Assembly: GCA_036676705.1 (NCBI GenBank)
Contig: JAKFCJ010000207.1
Location: 15-64,014 of the forward strand
Source of the DNA: Bacteroidota bacterium
Lineage (GTDB): Bacteria; Bacteroidota; Bacteroidia; UBA8524
Direction: 5' to 3'
DNA: 64,000 bases
Of the stretch, positions 299 to 64,000 are shown piece by piece (position 1 is the first letter of the stretch; each line of letters opens with the position of its first letter). Position numbers and translations under genes: made by a program. The notes beneath the pieces are model-generated. The model searched no databases and was not told the origin of the DNA. It saw only the letters and a list, made by a program, of their open reading frames with translations.

Positions 299-1810
299 CT
301 AGTTGGTAATTTTTAGCAAAAGCAGATCCTGCCCAGGGAAATAGAGAGCCGTATCGTGGTAGAACGAGTCGGGAATGGCATTATACCCGTTATATCCGGC
401 GTATTCCCGCTTGTCTGTGTAGATATAATAATAATCAACTTTCGCCATACGAACACTATCCGCATCGCCCTGTATTAGTTCCACCCAGGGATAGTTGTTT
501 GTATTTTTCACATGCCTCATCGAGACGTTAATGATCCAGCTATGGTCGAGATAAAGCGTATCCTGCCTTTGTTGCCCTTCTTTGTTCAGGTAATCCATGA
601 CCTCCTCCGATCTCGCGTCGAAAGGCCAGGAATAGCTATAACTCAGGTTCGCCAAATGTACAAAGTTGACAAGGGCCGCCAGGCTCAGGATAGTCATGCC
701 AGACAAGGCAATTTTTCCATACGGCTTATCCACCGCCAATTCGCAGGCAGCAAGCACCATCCAGACCAGGGGCAGAAGAAATACCAGCGCGGTTCGCTCG
801 ACTAGAAATGGCGTTCTGAAAAGTTGGTTTTGGAGCAGGGATGAAAGGCAGAGCATGACAAAAAGCAACGCGAACATGAAGAAAGGTGTTCCTAAACTTT
901 GTTTGGGCGCCTTTTCCTTCCTCAGGTAAATGAGGCAGCTCAGGACCAGCTGAAGGGCGATGGTCAGCAGGACGAAATGGGCAATGCGATCCGGCGTTTC
1001 GAAACCCATAATTCCGAGAAATAAGGAAGTGAATGTATCATAGACCAGGCCGGTTTGGCCCCCATACCAGAGTTCATCGCCCAGTCTTAACTTGATGATG
1101 GGCTTAATGATAATGGCGAAAAGGATAAGCGTGGGAATTGCAAGGCCTGAGGTTAAGGTTGAGGTTGGGTGCCTGCCGTAACGCAGGGGAAGGAGGGAGG
1201 GTTTTATCCAGGCCAGGTAAACGAGAACGGGAAGGAGGGCCAGATAGAAATTAAGCCAGGTGAAATTGGCGAGGACCGCGAGGGCAGCAAAGGTTAAGGT
1301 TAAGGTTGCGTGCCCGCCGAAACGCATGTGAAGGCGGGAGGTTGAGTGCCCGCGGTATTGGTCCAGGTAATAGAGACTCGCTGTGGTGAATGCGAGGGCC
1401 ATTCCGTAACCCCGGGTGAGGCTGAAAAATTCGAGCAGAAAGGGATTGAAAAAGCAGAGCACAAAAGCCATGACCTGCAGGGAAGTTGAAGACAGCCTGC
1501 GCAGGAGCCGGATACTGAACCAGGCATAAAGTAAAAATGCCAGCACGTTTGGAAGCCGGTAGAGGAAGGGTTCTGACAAGGCGAACAAGGTTTTGTTCTG
1601 CTGAATCAGCCAGACAAAGAGTGAATTCAACAGATGGGAATTCGAGCCAAGGCCCTGGTAGGTGAAGATATCGGTAAATGTGCGGTCAGCAAGGGAATCA
1701 ATCGTCCAGAGTTCGTCGTAAGTGAGCGGAATGACCGTTGCCCGCAGGATGACATAAATGAAACAAAGAAGTGCGGCAAGCTGTGGCCAATAAGGGATCC
1801 ATTTCTTCAT
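299..1810 (-). CDS. Polytopic membrane glycosyltransferase, GT39/GT83-like (ArnT/PMT-type). An N-terminal loop carries a DE motif (PLTYDELW)
   Basis: 503 aa with more than 10 predicted TM helices. The DE motif is in the first periplasmic loop. The protein contains an internal nucleotide-level duplicated segment. Confidence 0.55.
   Translation of the reverse strand: MKKWIPYWPQLAALLCFIYVILRATVIPLTYDELWTIDSLADRTFTDIFTYQGLGSNSHLLNSLFVWLIQQNKTLFALSEPFLYRLPNVLAFLLYAWFSIRLLRRLSSTSLQVMAFVLCFFNPFLLEFFSLTRGYGMALAFTTASLYYLDQYRGHSTSRLHMRFGGHATLTLTFAALAVLANFTWLNFYLALLPVLVYLAWIKPSLLPLRYGRHPTSTLTSGLAIPTLILFAIIIKPIIKLRLGDELWYGGQTGLVYDTFTSLFLGIMGFETPDRIAHFVLLTIALQLVLSCLIYLRKEKAPKQSLGTPFFMFALLFVMLCLSSLLQNQLFRTPFLVERTALVFLLPLVWMVLAACELAVDKPYGKIALSGMTILSLAALVNFVHLANLSYSYSWPFDARSEEVMDYLNKEGQQRQDTLYLDHSWIINVSMRHVKNTNNYPWVELIQGDADSVRMAKVDYYYIYTDKREYAGYNGYNAIPDSFYHDTALYFPGQDLLLLKITN
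1151..1204. repeat. Intragenic copy A of the GGTTRA-hexamer plus GC-hairpin mini-element
   Basis: ggttaaggttgaggttgggtgcctgccgtaacgcaggggaaggagggagg is about 85 percent identical to copy B at 1291..1345. Its hexamer head is shared with the intergenic elements at 47914 and 62872. Confidence 0.5.
1291..1345. repeat. Intragenic copy B of the GGTTRA-hexamer plus GC-hairpin mini-element
   Basis: ggttaaggttaaggttgcgtgcccgccgaaacgcatgtgaaggcgggagg. It has a cccgcc/ggcggg stem. Confidence 0.5.
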
Positions 1811-24753: not shown

Positions 24754-24974
24754 CTGATGGTGAGAGGGTGAGACGGAGGATGGTGAGACTTTTGGGTTAG
24801 TCATTCTTTTAGTAACCGTCACTTCGAGCTTGTCGAGAAGGGACTGGGACGAAAGCTTTGGGTCTGCCTGGCTCTCGACTCGCCATGGGGCCTCTGCACG
24901 TCCGGTAAATACGTTTGGCGGCTCGAGCTGACTGATCATGTAGCTCTCAGAATCCAGAAACCCTTTATAAAAAA

Positions 24975-28719: not shown

Positions 28720-28727
28720 GGAAGTCG

Positions 28728-28800
28728 ACGGTCAACAGACTACAGTCAACAGAATTATTCCAGGTTACTAAAAGCGCAAAAAACTGTTGACCGTTGTCTG
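28728..28800. terminator. Inverted-repeat structure between convergent genes, a candidate bidirectional terminator
   Basis: cgacggtcaacag ... ctgttgaccgttg inverted pair, with four gtcaacag/ctgttgac copies. Confidence 0.35.
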
Positions 28801-28811
28801 TCGACCGTTGA

Positions 28812-30737
28812 CTACAAATCCTCCGTCACCCCTTCATACAACTCCTCTATTTCCATCGCGTATTTGGACTCAATGATCCTTCGTTTGGATTTGAGGGTTG
28901 GTGTGAGTTCCCCTTCTTCTACACTAAAGGGTTTTCTTTTGAGAACAAAGTTTTTAATGCGTTCAAATTTCGCCAGTTCGTTGGATAGTTTGCGAATGTC
29001 TTCGTTCATCCACAGGATCATTTCTTCATTGCGGATAAATGGGTCCGTTTCTTCAAAGAAGGCATCGTTTACCCCGAACTTTTCTTTGAGCTCCTCTTTG
29101 GCAGGCACAATGATGGCCGTAATAAATTCGCGCCGGTCGCCGATCAAAAAGAGCTGTTCGATCTTCGAACTTTTCATATAGATGTTCTCAACCGGTGTCG
29201 GATAGATATTTTTTCCATATGCATTCACCAACATGTTTTTGATGCGGTCAGTGATTTTCAGGTAACCGTGGTGGAATTTGCCCACGTCGCCGGTATGGAA
29301 CCAGCCGTCCTTATCGATCACGGCTGCGGTGTCTTCGGGTTTGTTCCAGTAGCCCATCATCACGGAAGGTCCTTTTACAACAATTTCGCCTTCTTCGCAG
29401 GTGAATTTCGGATCGAAGGTCTCCCGGGTTTGGATGGTATAAAATTCTCCATTGTCTTTGTTGATAATGCCAACCTGCAACTCAGGTACGATGGCTCCTA
29501 CCGTTCCGTAAACCTGTTTTTCTTCTAAATTGATAGAAATGAGGGGAGAAGTTTCAGTGAGTCCGTACCCTTCCAGTGCAGTAATACCCAGATTGCCAAA
29601 AAATTCACCGACATGCTGGGGAAGCGCTGCCCCACCGGAAACAAGAAGACGCATTTTTCCGCCCAAACGGGCTTTCACTTTTTTAAAGACCAGGATGGAG
29701 GCGAGTTTGTGTTGCGCCGCGAGAAGCGGACTGACCCATTTCCCATGTTCCTTCTTTACCCTTACTGTTTCCCCAATACCAACCGCCCAGTAGAATATTT
29801 TTTTGCTCAGGCCGCCTTTGGTCTCGGCGCTTTTGATCACCCGTTCTTTGACCCTTTCCAAAAGGCGGGGCACCGTGGTCATAACCGTAGGCTGAACTTC
29901 CGTCATGTTGGCGGAAAGGGATTCTATACTCTGGGCAAAGGCGATCTCGGCACCTACATAAATACCAAGATAGTAGGTTGCGAGGCGTTCATACACGTGG
30001 CAAAGCGGTAAAAAGGAGAGGTAACGGTCGTCTTTGCTGATGGAAGGCACGGTGGTTTTGGCCATCCATACATTGCTCATAAAATTTTCATGGCTCAGCA
30101 TTACACCTTTGGGAACACCTGTAGTACCCGAGGTATAAATAAGGGAAGCCAGGTCCTTGGGGCCTATCGACTGAAATAAGGCTTCGATTTCCTCCCTGTT
30201 TTTCGCATAAAGGTCTTTCCCCATGGCAAACAGGTCGACCAGAGAAACCAGGCGCGGGTCGTCCGATTTGGCATTGGCCTTCGGGAAGTTCAGGAATATG
30301 GCCTTTACATCGGGACAATTTTGGACAGCCTTCAGTACTTTTTTTAAGAGGAAAGGATTACCGACCAAAACACCTTTGGAACCTGAATCTTTGATGATGT
30401 ATTCAATTTCAGATTCGGGAAGGGTAGGATAAATGGAGGCGTTTACACAACCTATTTGGAGTAGTGCCTGATCGAAAATGAGAAATTCCGGACAGTTTTC
30501 AAGAATGATCGCCAGGCGGTCGCCTTTGGTAAAGCCATGTTCGACCAAATAGGCACTTACACTGTTTATCCGGTCAAGGATCTCCCCATAAGAAAAAGAG
30601 ACATAAGTCCCTTCGATTTTCTGCATCAAAAAGGTGTCCTGTGCTTTTTTCGTGTACTGAATCGTGTCACGAAGCATTTGGTGCAGGGAATTGGGTAGAT
30701 TCATGGCAGTCTGGTTAGAGGTTTGTGCAAAATACAA
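28812..30737 (-). CDS. Long-chain fatty acid--CoA ligase (AMP-binding family)
   Basis: TSGTTGVPKGVMLSHENF AMP-binding motif, 641 aa. Confidence 0.85.
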   Translation of the reverse strand: MYFAQTSNQTAMNLPNSLHQMLRDTIQYTKKAQDTFLMQKIEGTYVSFSYGEILDRINSVSAYLVEHGFTKGDRLAIILENCPEFLIFDQALLQIGCVNASIYPTLPESEIEYIIKDSGSKGVLVGNPFLLKKVLKAVQNCPDVKAIFLNFPKANAKSDDPRLVSLVDLFAMGKDLYAKNREEIEALFQSIGPKDLASLIYTSGTTGVPKGVMLSHENFMSNVWMAKTTVPSISKDDRYLSFLPLCHVYERLATYYLGIYVGAEIAFAQSIESLSANMTEVQPTVMTTVPRLLERVKERVIKSAETKGGLSKKIFYWAVGIGETVRVKKEHGKWVSPLLAAQHKLASILVFKKVKARLGGKMRLLVSGGAALPQHVGEFFGNLGITALEGYGLTETSPLISINLEEKQVYGTVGAIVPELQVGIINKDNGEFYTIQTRETFDPKFTCEEGEIVVKGPSVMMGYWNKPEDTAAVIDKDGWFHTGDVGKFHHGYLKITDRIKNMLVNAYGKNIYPTPVENIYMKSSKIEQLFLIGDRREFITAIIVPAKEELKEKFGVNDAFFEETDPFIRNEEMILWMNEDIRKLSNELAKFERIKNFVLKRKPFSVEEGELTPTLKSKRRIIESKYAMEIEELYEGVTEDL

Positions 30738-47316: not shown

Positions 47317-47919
47317 TTGAGCATGAATTTGGATTTTTTTAAAAAGGATAAGGTATTTTATGATGCGATAAAACACATAACATTACCTGACTACACTCCT
47401 TCTGATAACTATTTTCATTACCTGCTGAGGGCCATCGCGTTCCAACAACTTTCCGGCAAAGCCGGAGCCACCATTCATGGCCGTTTTCTACAGCTTTTTC
47501 CCGATCAGAATCCGGAACCGGGTTTTTTACTTGAACTGGAACATGACGCATTGCGCGGCGCAGGACTATCAGGACAAAAAGCTGCCTACATGAAAAATAT
47601 AGCCGATTTCTGGCTGAAAGAAAGCCTGACAAATGCAAAGATCGATCGCCTTGGCGATGAGGATATCCTGGATTATCTTACCCAGATCAAGGGCGTAGGC
47701 AAATGGACGGTTGAGATTTTCCTTATGTTCGGCATGGGCAGGCCTGATCTGTTTCCGCTCGACGATCTGGGTTTGCAGCAGGGTGTTGCCGGTATTTATG
47801 GCTTGAATCACCTGCCCTTAAAAGAACTCAAAAAGGAAATGGTTCGTATATCGGATGGATGGAGGCCACATCGGACCAAAGCGGCGCTTTATGTTTGGAG
47901 ATGGAAAGATGGAGGTTAA
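47317..47919 (+). CDS. HhH-GPD DNA glycosylase (AlkA-like DNA-3-methyladenine glycosylase II)
   Basis: GVGKWTVEIFLMFGMGRPDLFPLDDLGL (HhH-GPD with a catalytic Asp). Confidence 0.75.
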   Translation: MSMNLDFFKKDKVFYDAIKHITLPDYTPSDNYFHYLLRAIAFQQLSGKAGATIHGRFLQLFPDQNPEPGFLLELEHDALRGAGLSGQKAAYMKNIADFWLKESLTNAKIDRLGDEDILDYLTQIKGVGKWTVEIFLMFGMGRPDLFPLDDLGLQQGVAGIYGLNHLPLKELKKEMVRISDGWRPHRTKAALYVWRWKDGG

Positions 47920-47981
47920 GGTTAAGGTTGAGGTTGAGGTTGAGGTTGAGGTTGAGTGTCGGGGCAGAAAATCTTCTGCCC
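47914..47981. repeat. (GGTTAA)2(GGTTGA)5 hexamer array plus the GGGCAGAA/TTCTGCCC hairpin. It acts as a bidirectional terminator element between convergent genes
   Basis: Seven perfect tandem hexamers. The first one contains the alkA-like stop codon. An 8-bp stem hairpin lies at 47962..47981. Confidence 0.7.
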
Positions 47982-47995
47982 TTGATGCGGGGGAG

Positions 47996-51300: not shown

Positions 51301-51610
51301 ATTCGGGAGGTGTTTTCTATTCATGAGAACCACTGATAGGGGTTCAATATAGGTGAGCGAGGGTGAAATTTCCAATTTTTGGGTTGGTTAGGTTGTTATT
51401 TTTCAAACAACCGAATGGCATATCATAATGAATGGAAGGGATCCAATAGTCTCCTATCGATTTGACCGGTAGCTTTTGCGGATATGATGAGAACTGAAAT
51501 GGTACCGGCAACTACCTCGAAGAAACGGAGCGATAAAGACGAGGGTAATTTCATGGTTGATCGTTAATACCGAAACCTTGAATTAGTCAACACAGATAAT
51601 GGGTTTTTTT

Positions 51611-52023
51611 GATCCGACTCAAACATTCTTTTTTGCGGGTAGGTGTCCCACCGACCCGCACTCAAGCGGGAGAAGGGACTGCAGGAATTTCCTTCTCATT
51701 CGAGGAAAAGAAATGTGAAAGTTTTTAGTGGTTCCGGACGAAATTGTTGATCCGACCGTCAAGTTGATCCGCAGAGTAGAAGCGATTCGGTGGGACACCG
51801 AACCGCTAAAGGTTTTTTTTGATCCGACTCAAACCGGCCTTTTGCGGGTAGGTGTCCCACCGACCCGCACTCACCAGCGGGAGAAGCGACTGTAGGAATT
51901 TCCTTCTCATTCCAGTAAAAGAAATGTGAAAGTGTTTAGTGGTTCCGGACGAAATTGTTGATCCGACCGTCAAGTTGATCCGCAGAGTAGAAGCGATTCG
52001 GTGGGACACCGAACCGCTAATGG
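51611..52023. repeat. Two tandem copies of a ~205 bp structured repeat, each bounded by ~25 bp inverted repeats (gcgggtaggtgtcccaccgacccgc ... gcgattcggtgggacaccgaaccgc)
   Basis: Units 51611..51812 and 51821..52023 are more than 90 percent identical. Each has internal hairpins such as gagaag...cttctc. Confidence 0.8.
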
Positions 52024-52102
52024 ATTTTGATTTACGAAGTGATATTTTGACATTCTCACGACATAGTTGGCTGAAAAATGACCGTGAACTAACATTCCAA
52101 TC

Positions 52103-52609
52103 GTGAACTTAGTGTTTATGATTGAAACCAAATTTTTCACGGCCGTTGTAGAAAAAAGGAAGCCAATATTTGATGTGGATGGAGCGGATTTTATTAAAGT
52201 AATTGAAGGCTCTCTTGGCTATTTTTCAGCTAAAGCGCAATTTCAACTACATGCCTATGCTATAATGCCGAACCATGTTCATTTTTTGTATAGTGAGCCG
52301 AAGGACGGTGATTTATTTAGAGTTCCATTCATAAGGTTTACTGCGCATGAAATATTGAGATTAAACATTGGCCGGCCAATGAACAAAAGAGTTGATTTTG
52401 TAGTAAATAAGTCGGATAGAGTCGAGCAAGTTTGGCGTAGAAAATCAAAGACCATTCTGGTCAAAGATGAAAGGGTATATTTTGCCGTTCTCAACTATAT
52501 CCGGAAAAACACAGAGTCTGTTTTTTGGAAAGAAAGTATTAATCGACTAGCATTGGAACCCAGAGTACCATGCGTATCACGCGATTGGAAAAGTAATTTA
52601 CCAAACTAA
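52103..52609 (+). CDS. IS200/IS605-family HuH-Y1 transposase, RAYT-like (REP-associated tyrosine transposase)
   Basis: HuH motif MPNHVHFL and a downstream Tyr in NYIRKN at about +75 aa. 168 aa. It is flanked on both sides by the structured repeats. Confidence 0.6.
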   Translation: MNLVFMIETKFFTAVVEKRKPIFDVDGADFIKVIEGSLGYFSAKAQFQLHAYAIMPNHVHFLYSEPKDGDLFRVPFIRFTAHEILRLNIGRPMNKRVDFVVNKSDRVEQVWRRKSKTILVKDERVYFAVLNYIRKNTESVFWKESINRLALEPRVPCVSRDWKSNLPN

Positions 52610-52905
52610 GATCCCTTTTTTGCGGGTAGGTGTCCCACCGACCCGCACTCACCACCGGGAGAAGCGATTGCAGGAATTTCCTTCTCATTCGAGTAAAAGA
52701 AATGTGAAAGTGTTTAGTGATTCCGTACAAAATTGTTCATCCGACCGTCAAGTTGTTCCGGAGCGTAGAAGCAATTCGGTGGGATACCGAACCGCTAATT
52801 ATTTTTTTGATCTGACTCAAACATTCTTTTTTGCGGGTAGGTGTCCCACCGACCCGCACTCACCCGGGGGAGAAGCGATTACAGGAATTCCATTCTATAT
52901 CCAAG
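52610..52905. repeat. A further 1.5 copies of the same ~200 bp structured repeat, immediately downstream of the transposase
   Basis: Unit 52610..52800 is 5'-truncated. The partial unit 52809..52905 restarts with gatctgactcaaacattc. Confidence 0.8.
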
Positions 52906-54681: not shown

Positions 54682-56004
54682 ATGGACGTGTGGATGTATT
54701 TGCTGATCGGGTTGGCTGCCGGAGGAATGGCCGGGTATTTTTTTGCCATAGCCCGAAAACTTAAGGAAGGCGAATCCCTTCAATCCATACAAATTGAAAA
54801 AGCACGGGTCGAACAAAACCTGCAGGCTGCCGAAAACAGAAGAGCGGAGTTGGAACGCCGGCTTCTGGAACTCGAATCCTTTAACCAAACACTGTTGCAT
54901 GAAAACGCAGTGTTGAAAACCGAAGGACTCGGATTGCAGCAACGCATGGCCGAACAAAAAGAGGAGCTGGAAAAACTGAACGAACGTATGTCGCTGCAAT
55001 TCAAGAATCTGGCGAACGAGATCCTCGAAGAAAAAAGCAAAAAATTCACCGACCAGAACAAGATCAATATCGGGGAACTGCTTAACCCGCTCAAAGAGAA
55101 AATCGGCGAGTTTGAAAAGAAGGTAGACGAAAGCAACAAGGAAAATGTACGCATGAACAGTTCCCTTGGTGAACAACTCAAGAACCTGAAAGAACTCAAT
55201 CAACAAATTACCAAAGAAGCGGAGAACCTCACCCGGGCGCTGAAAGGCGATACCAAAACACAGGGAAACTGGGGGGAATTTATCCTTGAAAAAATTCTCG
55301 AACGAAGCGGACTGGTCAAAGGACAAGAATTTATCGTTCAGGAAAGTACCACTATGGAAGGCGGCCGGTTGCGACCCGATGTGGTCATCAAACTGCCCGA
55401 TAACAAGAATATTGTCGTTGACTCCAAGGTGTCACTGACAGCCTATGAACAGGCCATGAATGCAGGGGATGATGTTGAACGGGCCATGCATATGAAAATG
55501 CACGTTCAATCCATCAAAAATCATATCCGGCAACTCTCTTCCAAAGATTATCAGAAACTTTACGGTGTAGAAGGATTGGATTTTGTGCTTCTTTTCATTC
55601 CCATCGAACCGGCTTTCAGCTCAGCCCTGCAGGCAGAATCCGACCTCTTCAACCAGGCTTATGAAAAGCAGATCGTGTTGGTAAGTCCGAGTACGTTGCT
55701 GGCTACCCTGCGTACCGTGGCAAATATCTGGCGTTACGAATACCAGAACCGAAACGTGCTCGAAATAGCGCGTCAGGCCGGGGATATGTACGATAAGTTC
55801 GTCAATTTTTCGGAAGACCTGATCAAGTTGGGTGTTCAGATGGATACCTCAAAAAAGACCTATTCCGACGCCATGAACAAGCTCGTTGATGGGTCCGGAA
55901 ACCTGATCCGCCGCGCAGAAAAACTCAAGGAGTTGGGGGCTAAGACGTCGAAGCAGATGAATGATAAATTGTTGGACAGGAGTGAGAGTGGAAGTGAAAA
56001 GTGA
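54682..56004 (+). CDS. rmuC: DNA recombination protein RmuC
   Basis: N-terminal TM helix, long coiled coil, and the C-terminal RmuC domain LVSPSTLLATLRTVANIWRYEYQNRN. Confidence 0.85.
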   Translation: MDVWMYLLIGLAAGGMAGYFFAIARKLKEGESLQSIQIEKARVEQNLQAAENRRAELERRLLELESFNQTLLHENAVLKTEGLGLQQRMAEQKEELEKLNERMSLQFKNLANEILEEKSKKFTDQNKINIGELLNPLKEKIGEFEKKVDESNKENVRMNSSLGEQLKNLKELNQQITKEAENLTRALKGDTKTQGNWGEFILEKILERSGLVKGQEFIVQESTTMEGGRLRPDVVIKLPDNKNIVVDSKVSLTAYEQAMNAGDDVERAMHMKMHVQSIKNHIRQLSSKDYQKLYGVEGLDFVLLFIPIEPAFSSALQAESDLFNQAYEKQIVLVSPSTLLATLRTVANIWRYEYQNRNVLEIARQAGDMYDKFVNFSEDLIKLGVQMDTSKKTYSDAMNKLVDGSGNLIRRAEKLKELGAKTSKQMNDKLLDRSESGSEK

Positions 56005-56063
56005 AAAGTGAAAGGCAGCTATTGCTTAAAGCCTGCAGCCTATAGCCTATAGCCTATAGCCAT
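55994..56063. repeat. Tandem heptamers (GTGAAAA)x3 then (AGCCTAT)x3, spanning the rmuC stop codon
   Basis: Direct inspection. The rmuC TGA stop lies inside the second GTGAAAA. Confidence 0.6.
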
Positions 56064-61993: not shown

Positions 61994-62869
61994 ATGCGAT
62001 CTGGCCTGTTTATACTAATTGTAAGTACCCTTATTTCTTGTTCCACGCCTAAAGTCATGAACCAATCGGGTCGGGTAACACCAAAGGGAACAGTTGTCGG
62101 GGGAATTACCTATATGGCCAATGTTTCGCAGGAAAGCTCTGTACGGATGAGCGATGTCTTAAAAAATCAGATCAAAAATTTTAGCAGCGGCGATACCGTT
62201 CAATACGACCAGTTCCTTAGTGATGCCAATGCGGCCATTGTGGCATATGCCGTCGACCCGATCGCTTTTGGTCCACAGTTTTATTTGAGAGTAGGGGTTT
62301 GGGATCGCCTGGAATTGGGGTACACCCGCGCAAAGGGAACCAACATGTTCAGTGCACAAGGTCAGTTCATGGGATTTGAAAAGGAAAGAATTGAGGAGAG
62401 TAAAAAGCGCTGGTTTGGAAGTGGCGGCGTACAATACTCCTGGAATTCATACAACCTCCCCAATTTTTTCGGCAAAATGCAAGACAGATTTGGTTTTGAA
62501 TACAAACGCCGTGATTTTCTGCTTCCTTTTACTTTTTCCTATTCACTTGGTCCGAACGAAACCTATGGGGCGATAGGATTTGGTGCTGTTGTCGGCTTTC
62601 ATCGTATCGACTATTCCTTCCTTCCCGACAGGATCGTCAACGACAAAGGTGTTGTGCTAAAGCCTGGGAATCACACCAATAAATTCAGTTCCATAGGATT
62701 TTTTGTGAATGTGAAGGCAGGTTATAAGTTTGTCTATATCATTCCTTCCATTGCCGTCTATTACCAGCAGTATGGAACCTATCCGTTACTGGACCGGTCT
62801 TCCTTGTTTTTGGAGGGTTTCACCTTCGTTCCGGGGATCAGCTTGCAATTGAATACGATGCGGAAATAG
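61994..62869 (+). CDS. Lipoprotein, hypothetical (beta-rich)
   Basis: The internal start MRSGLFILIVSTLISC gives a lipobox. The upstream Met would overlap the terminator. Confidence 0.45.
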   Translation: MRSGLFILIVSTLISCSTPKVMNQSGRVTPKGTVVGGITYMANVSQESSVRMSDVLKNQIKNFSSGDTVQYDQFLSDANAAIVAYAVDPIAFGPQFYLRVGVWDRLELGYTRAKGTNMFSAQGQFMGFEKERIEESKKRWFGSGGVQYSWNSYNLPNFFGKMQDRFGFEYKRRDFLLPFTFSYSLGPNETYGAIGFGAVVGFHRIDYSFLPDRIVNDKGVVLKPGNHTNKFSSIGFFVNVKAGYKFVYIIPSIAVYYQQYGTYPLLDRSSLFLEGFTFVPGISLQLNTMRK

Positions 62870-62871
62870 GT

Positions 62872-62934
62872 GGTGTAGGTTGTAGGTTGTAGGGGCAGAA
62901 GATTTTCTGCCCCTACAACCTACAACCTACAACC
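62872..62934. repeat. About 30-bp perfect palindrome built from (GGTTGTA)x3 plus GGGGCAGAA/TTCTGCCCC. It is a bidirectional terminator overlapping the uvrB stop
   Basis: tggtgtaggttgtaggttgtaggggcagaa gatt ttctgcccctacaacctacaacctacaacc. The uvrB TAG lies inside the right arm. Confidence 0.75.
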
Positions 62935-64000
62935 CTGTTTCGCCGGCCAACTTCTCCTTCAAGCCCATCAACTCATCCCGCAGCCGGGCGGCGCTCATAA
63001 AATCCAACTCTTTGGCGGATTTTAACATGGCTTTTTCCGTTTCGCTGATCGCCTTTTTCAGTTTGTCACCGGTCAGGTATTTCATGATCGGGTCGGCTGC
63101 GACAGAATTTGTTTCCTCGGGCTCGACGTATATTTTCGCGATCGCTCCTTTATAGTCGACAACAGAGGTTTGTTTCATAATGGCTTCTCTCGACTTGAAA
63201 ACCGTTGTCGGGGTGATGCCATGTTCGGTATTGTAGGCGATTTGTTTTTCGCGACGGCGGTTGTTCTCTTCAATGGTTTTGGCCATGCTGTCGGTCATCC
63301 GGTCGGCATACATGATCACTTTACCACGCTGGTTCCTGGCAGCCCGGCCTATGGTTTGCGTGAGCGAACGGGCACTGCGTAAGAAGCCTTCTTTGTCGGC
63401 ATCCATAATGGCAACAAAGGAAACTTCAGGCAAATCAAGTCCTTCCCGCAGCAGGTTAACCCCAACCAAAACATCAAATTCGCCCAAACGCAAGCCGCGT
63501 AAAATTTCAACACGTTCGAGGGTTTTTACTTCGGAGTGGATGTATTGGCAACGAATCCCGAGGCGCGACATGTATTTGGTCAGTTCTTCGGCCATTCTTT
63601 TGGTGAGGGTTGTTACAAGGATACGGTCGCCCATTTTGATGCGGTCGTCGATCTCTTCCAAAAGATCATCGACCTGGTTCAGCGAGGGACGAACCTCAAT
63701 GACCGGATCAAGCAGGCCCGTGGGGCGAATGATCTGCTCCACCACCACGCCATCTGACTCTGCCACTTCAAAATCAGCGGGAGTAGCTGAAACATAAATA
63801 ACCTGTTTGATGATGGAATAAAACTCATCAAAGGTTAAAGGGCGGTTATCCATTGCCGCAGGAAGCCGGAATCCATAATCGACCAGATTGATCTTGCGCG
63901 AACGGTCTCCTCCATACATGGCCCTTACCTGAGGGATGGAAACATGGCTTTCATCCACCACCAGTAAAAAATCATCCGGAAAATAATCCATCAAACAAAA
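62927..64000 (-). CDS. uvrB: Excinuclease ABC subunit B, C-terminal part. The gene continues past the window end
   Basis: Helicase C-terminal motifs TIGRAARN and UVR domain [15 protein letters not shown]. Confidence 0.9.

Follow-up and report, generated by a model that had tools for sequence, protein, structure and literature searches.

The DNA analyzed here is a 64,000-nucleotide stretch of a Bacteroidota genome (the window), toward one end of which uvrB, transcribed from the minus strand, converges with an open reading frame (ORF) of 291 amino acids on the plus strand. The stops of the two genes are separated by a gap of 57 nt, and a repeat search indicated that the gap is occupied by a perfect palindrome, 58 nt in all, the two 27-nt arms of which are 100% complementary and enclose a 4-nt loop, GATT (Table 1). 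A stem of roughly 30 bp had been described for this site in the original prediction; the stem is indeed perfect and uninterrupted, but its length is 27 bp. Read from the outside in, the palindrome is laid out as GTAGGTT GTAGGTT GTAGGGGCAGAA-loop-TTCTGCCCCTAC AACCTAC AACCTAC. Tandem Repeats Finder reported a period of 7 nt for both arms, with 2.9 copies at 62874-62893 and 3.3 copies at 62912-62934, both 100% matched, which bears out the heptamer make-up that had been claimed for the arms. There are about three 7-nt units per arm, and the two heptamer arrays are exact mirror images with equal copy numbers. Pairing outside the 27-bp arms, between GAAATAGG and CCTGTTTC, is imperfect. The uvrB stop codon lies inside the palindrome, as had been noted, the TAG being the complement of three bases within the right arm. 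The perfect right arm spans this stop and two bases of a Leu codon, and the interval to 62934 adds the remainder of the Leu codon and two bases of a Gly codon. The earlier reading of the right arm as encoding the last three uvrB codons and the TAG was thus correct for the stop but should be reduced from three codons to two.

Table 1. Coordinates of the palindrome, its parts and the second hairpin copy in the window
Feature	Position	Strand	Remark
Hexamer array (GGTTAA)x2 (GGTTGA)x5	47912..47956	+	just 5' of the second hairpin
Second hairpin copy GGGGCAGAA-AATC-TTCTGCCCt	47961..47982	+	no GTAG foot, one stem-base mismatch
Outer imperfect partner GAAATAGG	62863..62870	+	pairs with 62934-62941
Stop TAG of the convergent 291-aa ORF	62867..62869	+	4 nt ahead of the left arm
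Left arm of the 27-bp palindrome	62874..62900	+	GTAGGTT at 62875-62881 and 62882-62888, then core GTAGGGG
REP core	62889..62916		GTAG foot, 8-bp stem GGGCAGAA/TTCTGCCC, loop GATT, complementary foot CTAC ("double foot")
Loop GATT	62901..62904		AATC on the minus strand, same as the loop at 47970-47973
Right arm of the 27-bp palindrome	62905..62931	+	core CTAC, then AACCTAC x2; CT and CA dinucleotides in each unit
uvrB stop TAG	62927..62929	-	from the outermost right-arm heptamer
Outer imperfect partner CCTGTTTC	62934..62941	+	within uvrB codons for E-T-G

When the palindrome region was folded as RNA, the predicted minimum free energy was -65.1 kcal/mol on the plus strand and -61.0 kcal/mol on the minus strand, with z scores of -11.6 and -12.5, respectively, and none of 200 shuffled sequences folded equally well. 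Folded as DNA, the palindrome reached -35.5 kcal/mol. The prediction of a very stable stem was therefore upheld for both strands. The runner-up among perfect hairpins in the whole 64-kb window had a stem of only 11 bp, and we conclude that the 27-bp palindrome did not arise by chance.

At the center of the palindrome is a 28-nt core, GTAG-GGGCAGAA-GATT-TTCTGCCC-CTAC, which is the sole perfect hairpin in the window that is tagged with GT[AG]G. REP elements are characterized by a G+C-rich hairpin that has the tetranucleotide GTAG at its foot (PMC3733652). The TnpA_REP/RAYT transposases of subclass 2.4, which are found in Cyanobacteria and Bacteroidetes, share the signature NH[IFV]H / WQ / YIxNNP; the REPs of this subclass have three G-C pairs at the base of the stem, some of their families carry a "double foot" of the form GT[AG]G ... 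C[TC]AC, and REPs are inserted in frame within the tnpA_REP gene (Quentin et al. 2018, PMC6006769). In the window, a 5' GTAG at 62889-62892 and a 3' CTAC at 62913-62916 make up a double foot of this form, and the stem base pairs GGGG with CCCC (62892-62895 and 62910-62913). The core, at 28 nt, falls within the ~20 to 40 nt typical for REPs, whereas the full perfect palindrome is longer. Where a REP separates convergent ORFs, its distance to each 3' end is below 20 bp, and GTAG termini "often provide" a TAG stop; repair genes, uvrA and uvrB among them, have been reported to carry REPs within or next to them (Di Nocera et al. 2013, PMC3733652). The palindrome is likewise extragenic between convergent 3' ends, 4 nt from one stop and including the other. 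The core thus carries the defining foot, stem base and complementary foot of a subclass 2.4-type REP. It is not a REP doublet (REPIN), an example of which occurs at a Muribaculaceae locus (L106), but a single hairpin with a 4-nt loop. Nor is the palindrome a MITE, which would be 70 to 300 bp long with terminal inverted repeats and a target-site duplication; it measures 58 nt and there is no direct repeat at its borders. No ORF with the WQ..Y.EH..R motif of RAYTs was found in the 64-kb window, and an Rfam covariance-model search of the whole window gave no match at the gathering score.

The hairpin family was scanned in one genome per species with the pattern GGGGCAGAANNNNTTCTGCCC, which presupposes the core. 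Hairpins of this pattern were found at 119 loci or more, in Bacteroidota, Proteobacteria, Cyanobacteria, Ignavibacteria, Chloroflexota, Muiribacteriota and others. A random 17-mer would also return some tens of matches in an equal volume of DNA, and the informative part is the bases that the pattern leaves unspecified. Among the matches listed, the flank outside the pattern was GTAG in 114 of 268 half-sites, with G, T and A each at ~60 to 68% at positions -4 to -2, and perfect arms were mostly 8 to 13 bp. Longer perfect arms, of 28, 26, 21 and 19 bp, occurred in L073, L047, L022 and L012, respectively, and thus a long perfect palindrome centered on this REP is not unique to the window. The hairpin is part of RAYT-like ORFs in two members of the family, L034 (Chitinophagaceae) and L114 (Ferruginibacter), where it is read in frame as VGAENFLPL. 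The two ORFs contain the motifs NHVH, VWQRNY(H/Y)EHIIRNE and YI(I/V)NNP and match the NCBIfam model "REP-associated tyrosine transposase" with E values of 1e-15 to 1e-16, a score below the curated cut-off. The TAG of the foot served as the end of a long ORF in 9 of 115 family cases, no more than in other frames.

Other arrangements of the hairpin were observed within the family. In L073 (1444-1503) and L047 (5622-5677), the REP is centered in palindromes with 28- and 26-bp arms that consist of unique, nonrepeat flanks, which suggests either that the REP entered preexisting palindromes at their center or that the palindrome grew outward. At three loci, L107 (6587-6760), L083 (5413-5510) and L102 (5915-6030, from uncultured Bacteroidetes Loclat_bin-03441), the REP and a constant spacer are arranged head to tail with periods of 53, 49 and 47 nt, respectively. 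The regularity of these arrays is CRISPR-like, yet the "spacers" are identical.

A second copy of the hairpin is present in the window. A 21-nt sequence that includes the loop, GGGGCAGAAAATCTTCTGCCC, is identical at 47961-47981 on the plus strand and 62893-62913 on the minus strand, in agreement with the earlier observation that the palindrome shares its core with an element at 47962. With up to three mismatches allowed, the 22-mer was found at just two loci in the 64-kb window versus 0 expected, and the 9-mer GGGGCAGAA was not overrepresented there (15 matches versus 18.7 expected). The first TAA of the hexamer array that precedes the second hairpin is the stop of an HhH-GPD glycosylase gene, and in a relative, L131, the same place holds a (GTAGGTAA)n array and no hairpin. 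Units of the GGTTGAG type also flank the REP at Muribaculaceae and Porphyromonadaceae loci (L005, L008, L059, L106 and L110).

Elsewhere in the window, GGTTAA/GGTTGA hexamers together with a GTGCC(Y)GCC motif occur at 1140-1170 and 1285-1360, in frame within ORF 299..1810 on the minus strand, which encodes a 503-aa membrane protein. The in-frame segments code for ...RYGRHPTSTLTS... and ...STSRLHMRFGGHATLTLT.... The 8-aa sequence GRHPTSTL was missing from all six homologues, including one that was 76% identical by search (78% in the alignment), and a 14- to 16-aa segment was shared only with that homologue. Judged from these sequences, the segments seem to stem from a small repeat that was inserted in frame in a lineage-specific manner. 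Four copies of a different repeat, 190 to 211 nt in length, lie at 51604-52871 as two tandem pairs that flank ORF 52118..52609; each copy contains GCGGGTAGGTGTCCCACCGACCCGCAC, and the repeats matched no Rfam family above noise.

The uvrB junction was compared with that of relatives reached via homologues of the 291-aa ORF. The same order of amidohydrolase, 291- to 294-aa ORF and convergent uvrB was found in eight independent assemblies, in which the amidohydrolase was 88 to 93% identical to that of the window; in the nearest five relatives, the C-terminal 350 residues of UvrB were 96 to 98% identical. A word-indexed search with a UvrB fragment had returned identities of 78% or less, yet UvrB of 96 to 98% identity was present in the same collections when approached via the neighboring ORF, and thus a negative outcome of the word-indexed search is no proof that close relatives are absent. 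The junctions differed among the relatives. In three of them (L122, L127 and L129), the stop codons overlap by 4 nt and there is no element, and in L126 the gap is 10 nt. L123 carries a different double-foot REP, GTTGGCAG-GTAGGGGTTGAA-aatg-TTCAACCCCTAC-CTGCCAAC, with 20-bp perfect arms, a variant that is also found inside the L034 transposase gene. The 34-nt gap of L125 contains a decayed copy of the GGGCAGAA REP in which AGGGCAGAAAATTTTCT is intact, and the junctions of L120 and L121 contain an unrelated insert of at least 119 to 149 nt. GTAG hairpins were sparse in the 16- to 21-kb stretches of the relatives. Another repeat, GGGT(T/C)ACCCCTTCGGGGT(G/T)G..., is located at the uvrB junction of L120 (4960-5138) and L121 (4960-5000), and a unit of ~45 nt (TGGGTTACCCCTTCGGGGTGGTTTGATCCGTAGCGATGTTAAC) is present twice in L120.

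The end of uvrB also differed. UvrB of the window ends in ...LAGETGL*, versus ...LAGEKGRN*, ...LAGEKAG*, ...MEKEKTTG* and ...LAKEKNS* in the relatives, and alignment of the DNA indicated that uvrB of the window is homologous to its counterparts through a GGG (Gly) codon, after which heptamer sequence follows. The last uvrB codons and the stop have been replaced by sequence of the element. On the other side of the junction, the 291-aa ORF ends in ...RK* with a TAG stop both in the window and in L120, and this stop therefore predates the palindrome. The window, L120, L121 and L122 are about equidistant, and the turnover at the junction reflects either several insertions or one insertion followed by precise excision in L122. 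The uvrB junction is a hot spot that has been repeatedly hit or turned over.

These comparisons contradict a role of the element as a conserved feature of uvrB: relatives with UvrB C-termini that are 96 to 98% identical, and with neighboring proteins of 91 to 93% identity, lack it or have the site otherwise occupied, and the UvrB tail differs. The original prediction had itself named this outcome as one that would count against it, and the lack of the element in relatives combined with the difference in UvrB tails points to a lineage-specific insertion at a repeatedly hit site. Presence/absence turnover at orthologous sites, as seen among the relatives of the window, is moreover a mark of mobility. 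We conclude that the palindrome is probably a GTAG-tagged double-foot REP of the TnpA_REP/RAYT subclass 2.4 type, inserted in this lineage only, at the junction of uvrB and the 291-aa gene. The insertion is recent. Because the REP copy was inserted in this lineage only, the palindrome is a selfish repeat of an ordinary kind, though unusual in form, and not a conserved uvrB control element.

One way in which the palindrome could have come to lie exactly between two convergent stops is if it had evolved in place, for uvrB and its convergent neighbor, as a bidirectional intrinsic terminator or a protector of mRNA 3' ends. The hairpin is very stable as RNA on both strands, and E. coli REPs have been credited with mRNA stabilization and transcription attenuation in works that stand among the references listed in PMC8266576. 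The stem, however, is followed by no run of T on either strand, the 3' flanks being ACCCTGTTTCGCC (plus) and CCACCTATTTCCGC (minus), and the palindrome was not listed by a consensus terminator scan of the window; it is therefore not a canonical intrinsic terminator. What stands of the earlier proposal of a terminator or stabilizer is the stability of the stem and its position at the 3' ends of two convergent genes. The element is also absent from the three relatives whose genes overlap by 4 nt, unrelated sequences take its place in others, and its center is a cross-phylum repeat with a GTAG foot. Moreover, a perfect RNA duplex of 27 bp is long enough to be an RNase III substrate, and cleavage of so likely a target would destabilize the mRNA instead of protecting it. 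Evolution in place as a terminator or protector is thus unlikely.

An effect on transcript ends is nevertheless plausible by analogy with REPs, since the stem is located at the 3' ends of two convergent genes. Both mRNAs would either terminate in the very strong hairpin or continue through it, and terminating ribosomes would have to melt much of the stem; as a by-product, the hairpin could alter 3'-end stability or termination. Liang, Rudd and Deutscher reportedly found in 2015 that E. coli REPs within ~15 nt of a stop codon lower expression via ribosome stalling. With ribosome stalling at the stop on the one hand and a duplex of a size suited to RNase III on the other, the effect on uvrB mRNA could take either sign. 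Any terminator or mRNA effect would, on the present analysis, be a secondary consequence of the insertion, with nothing pointing to selection for such a role.

The REP in the window is distinguished by its outer arms, in which a foot-containing 7-nt unit is present in two additional copies on each side. The unit, GTAGGTT, begins with the foot and continues in register into the core GTAGGGG. The sole unusual part of the element is this reiteration of the feet as a tandem repeat of a foot-containing unit. Reiterated foot units also lie beside the same REP in L106 (Muribaculaceae), where three copies of GTAGGGGTT run into GTAGGGGCAGAA; in L160, where five copies of GTAGCAT accompany the same hairpin; and in L156, where GTAGTTA arrays flank the same REP on both sides. 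A scan of metagenomes for GTAG..GTAG..GTAGGGGCAGAA returned 58 matches that were mostly not hairpins, with true analogues only in L160 and L156 and a partial one in L135, and an exact search of metagenome contigs for GGTTGTAGGTTGTAGGGGCAGAA gave no match. Reiterated GTAG feet are not a trait of the family as a whole, as a second GTAG 5 to 10 nt upstream of the foot was present in 4 of 113 cases, which is background. A general link between this REP and short tandem repeats was also considered and rejected: the raw count was 26 of 134 versus a background of 3.6%, and with an intergenic-only control the comparison was 16% versus 11.7% (p = 0.15).

Alternatively, the arms could be an independent heptamer microsatellite of a kind common after stops in this genome, with the REP having landed in the middle of the array and the repeats being unrelated to the foot. 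Such a microsatellite would resemble the STRRs, heptanucleotide repeats of heterocystous cyanobacteria reportedly described by Mazel et al. in 1990. Arrays with a period of 6 to 8 nt touch stops where there is no REP, at 24759-24789, 28723-28810 (inverted heptamers) and 55981-56061; the same REP lies within a direct (GTAGTTA)n array in L156; and, as stated above, tandem repeats near this REP are not significantly enriched over the intergenic background. An independent origin of the arms would leave unexplained, however, that GTAGGTT starts at the foot and is in register with the core, as are the repeated units of L106 and L160, and that the arrays mirror each other exactly and have the same number of copies. 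The empty site of L122, moreover, contains no heptamers. We consider it rather improbable that the arms are a microsatellite independent of the REP. Still less credible is an origin of the palindrome in misassembly, as a fold-back or a chimeric join close to where a metagenome-assembled contig ends (64,067 nt, with the palindrome ~1.1 kb from the end), since just 27 nt per side are inverted, two different genes follow beyond them in the order and orientation of the eight independent assemblies, and UvrB is 98% identical to that of L122 up to the last residues.

The window contains nine arrays with a period of 6 to 8 nt, seven of which touch a stop or lie within 6 nt of one; the other two, at 1148 and 1290, are in frame. 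About four imperfect copies of GGTGAGAC octamers are found at 24759-24789, 6 nt past the stop of a biotin carboxylase gene. Two inverted heptamer arrays of the GTCAAC(R) type, with imperfect 29-nt arms and a 31-nt spacer, lie between convergent genes at 28722-28814, and the stop of an AMP-binding enzyme gene (CTA at 28812-28814) adjoins the right arm. Their unit AGTCAAC (28723-28752) is a rotation of CAACAGT, which we take to be the unit of cyanobacterial STRR3. At 55981-56061, (AAGTGAA)n heptamers encode the C-terminal residues of RmuC and the TGA stop of its gene, and (CTATAGC)x3 follows; in L130 (3990-4050) and L131 (4000-4060) the first rmuC array is kept with different copy numbers, and in place of the second there is (CCTGCAC)x2 or no array. 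Each period-7 array of the window has a stop on the strand of the upstream gene. Arrays of this kind did not behave as three-frame stop devices, as 108 nontriplet arrays in the fetched loci contained 80 stops versus 75 expected.

For a REP with reiterated feet, several steps of origin can be proposed. The element would have spread as single-stranded DNA by means of a Y1 HUH transposase. We know of no biochemistry for TnpA_REP of subclass 2.4; in other subclasses, TnpA_REP is guided by GTAG and cleaves single-stranded DNA close to the hairpin, at C|T or C|A (PMC8266576). One arm of the palindrome has GTAG in every unit, and the other has both CT and CA in every unit. The 7-nt unit (3 nt plus the foot) may have been duplicated by slippage between G runs (GG-TTGTA-GG) or was possibly gained by cleavage and rejoining between reiterated CT sites. 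Hairpin-templated (quasi-palindrome) template switching could then have transferred a change from one arm to the other. This would have made the 27-bp arms perfect and written over the last codons of uvrB. Quasi-palindrome correction is an established mutational mechanism.

A bolder reading, which we regard as doubtful, is that the transposase, and not plain slippage, left the reiterated feet as its footprint, with TnpA_REP cleavage and strand transfer between units adding or removing whole units. The transposase could do so because each 7-nt unit has the GTAG guide on one arm and the C|T of CTAC on the other. If this were true, RAYT activity would generate the hypervariable 6- to 9-nt arrays that occur by stops in this clade and in Muribaculaceae elements (L106 and L160), the cyanobacterial STRRs would perhaps have the same RAYT origin, and the arrays would mark the cleavage site of subclass 2.4 enzymes. 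As the guide tetranucleotide and the candidate cleavage dinucleotide are repeated in register, the question of the cut site could be addressed with short oligonucleotides.

The more probable interpretation as a lineage-specific REP bears on annotation: the hairpin is best entered as an inserted REP instead of a regulatory element of uvrB, and the final two residues of UvrB, together with the stop codon, as derived from the element. In addition, a single orthologous junction is, among species-level relatives, variously empty, occupied by either of two different intact REPs, or filled with a decayed REP or other inserts, which amounts to a natural series for subclass 2.4. That REPs lie between convergent genes and supply TAG stops is already known; what is unusual here is that reiterated feet give a 27-bp perfect palindrome.

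The palindrome resembles several known systems to different extents. Like the STRRs, it has tandem 7-nt intergenic units just downstream of genes, arrays that are sometimes inverted; unlike the STRRs, it belongs to a host of another phylum, has another unit sequence and contains just three copies. The heptamer unit presumably differs from those of STRR1 to STRR3, and no link between STRRs and a REP foot is known to us. The phage lambda sib retroregulator is an RNase III site 3' of int, and the palindrome likewise places, 3' of a gene, a long and perfectly paired RNA stem at which RNase III cleavage could open the mRNA to 3' exonucleases; there is no relation in sequence, and the likeness is an analogy of possible action. 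Like the E. coli REP/BIME elements, the palindrome is a stable extragenic hairpin right after a stop, here overlapping it, such that a terminating ribosome must unwind it. The E. coli elements, however, are imperfect, bulged, ~35 nt long and of subclass 2.2, whereas the perfect 27-bp duplex may attract RNase III.

Rickettsia palindromic elements and intragenic REPs (PMC3733652) find a counterpart in the in-frame repeat-plus-hairpin segments at 1140-1360 of the window, which are missing from homologues; the window segments are much shorter and have a hairpin of their own instead of the GGGGCAGAA core. The closest likeness is to known GTAG double-foot or long REPs (PMC6006769, PMC3733652), with which the palindrome shares 5' GTAG and 3' CTAC feet, a G-C stem base, a short loop, a position between convergent ORFs near both stops, a foot TAG used as a stop, and presence or absence among relatives. 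The identical hairpin, moreover, lies in frame within subclass 2.4-type transposase genes of other Bacteroidota. The palindrome differs from these REPs in that the foot-containing 7-nt unit is present twice more per side, which gives a stem of 27 bp instead of ~12 bp, and in that the uvrB stop is supplied by the outer repeat and not by the stem-adjacent foot.
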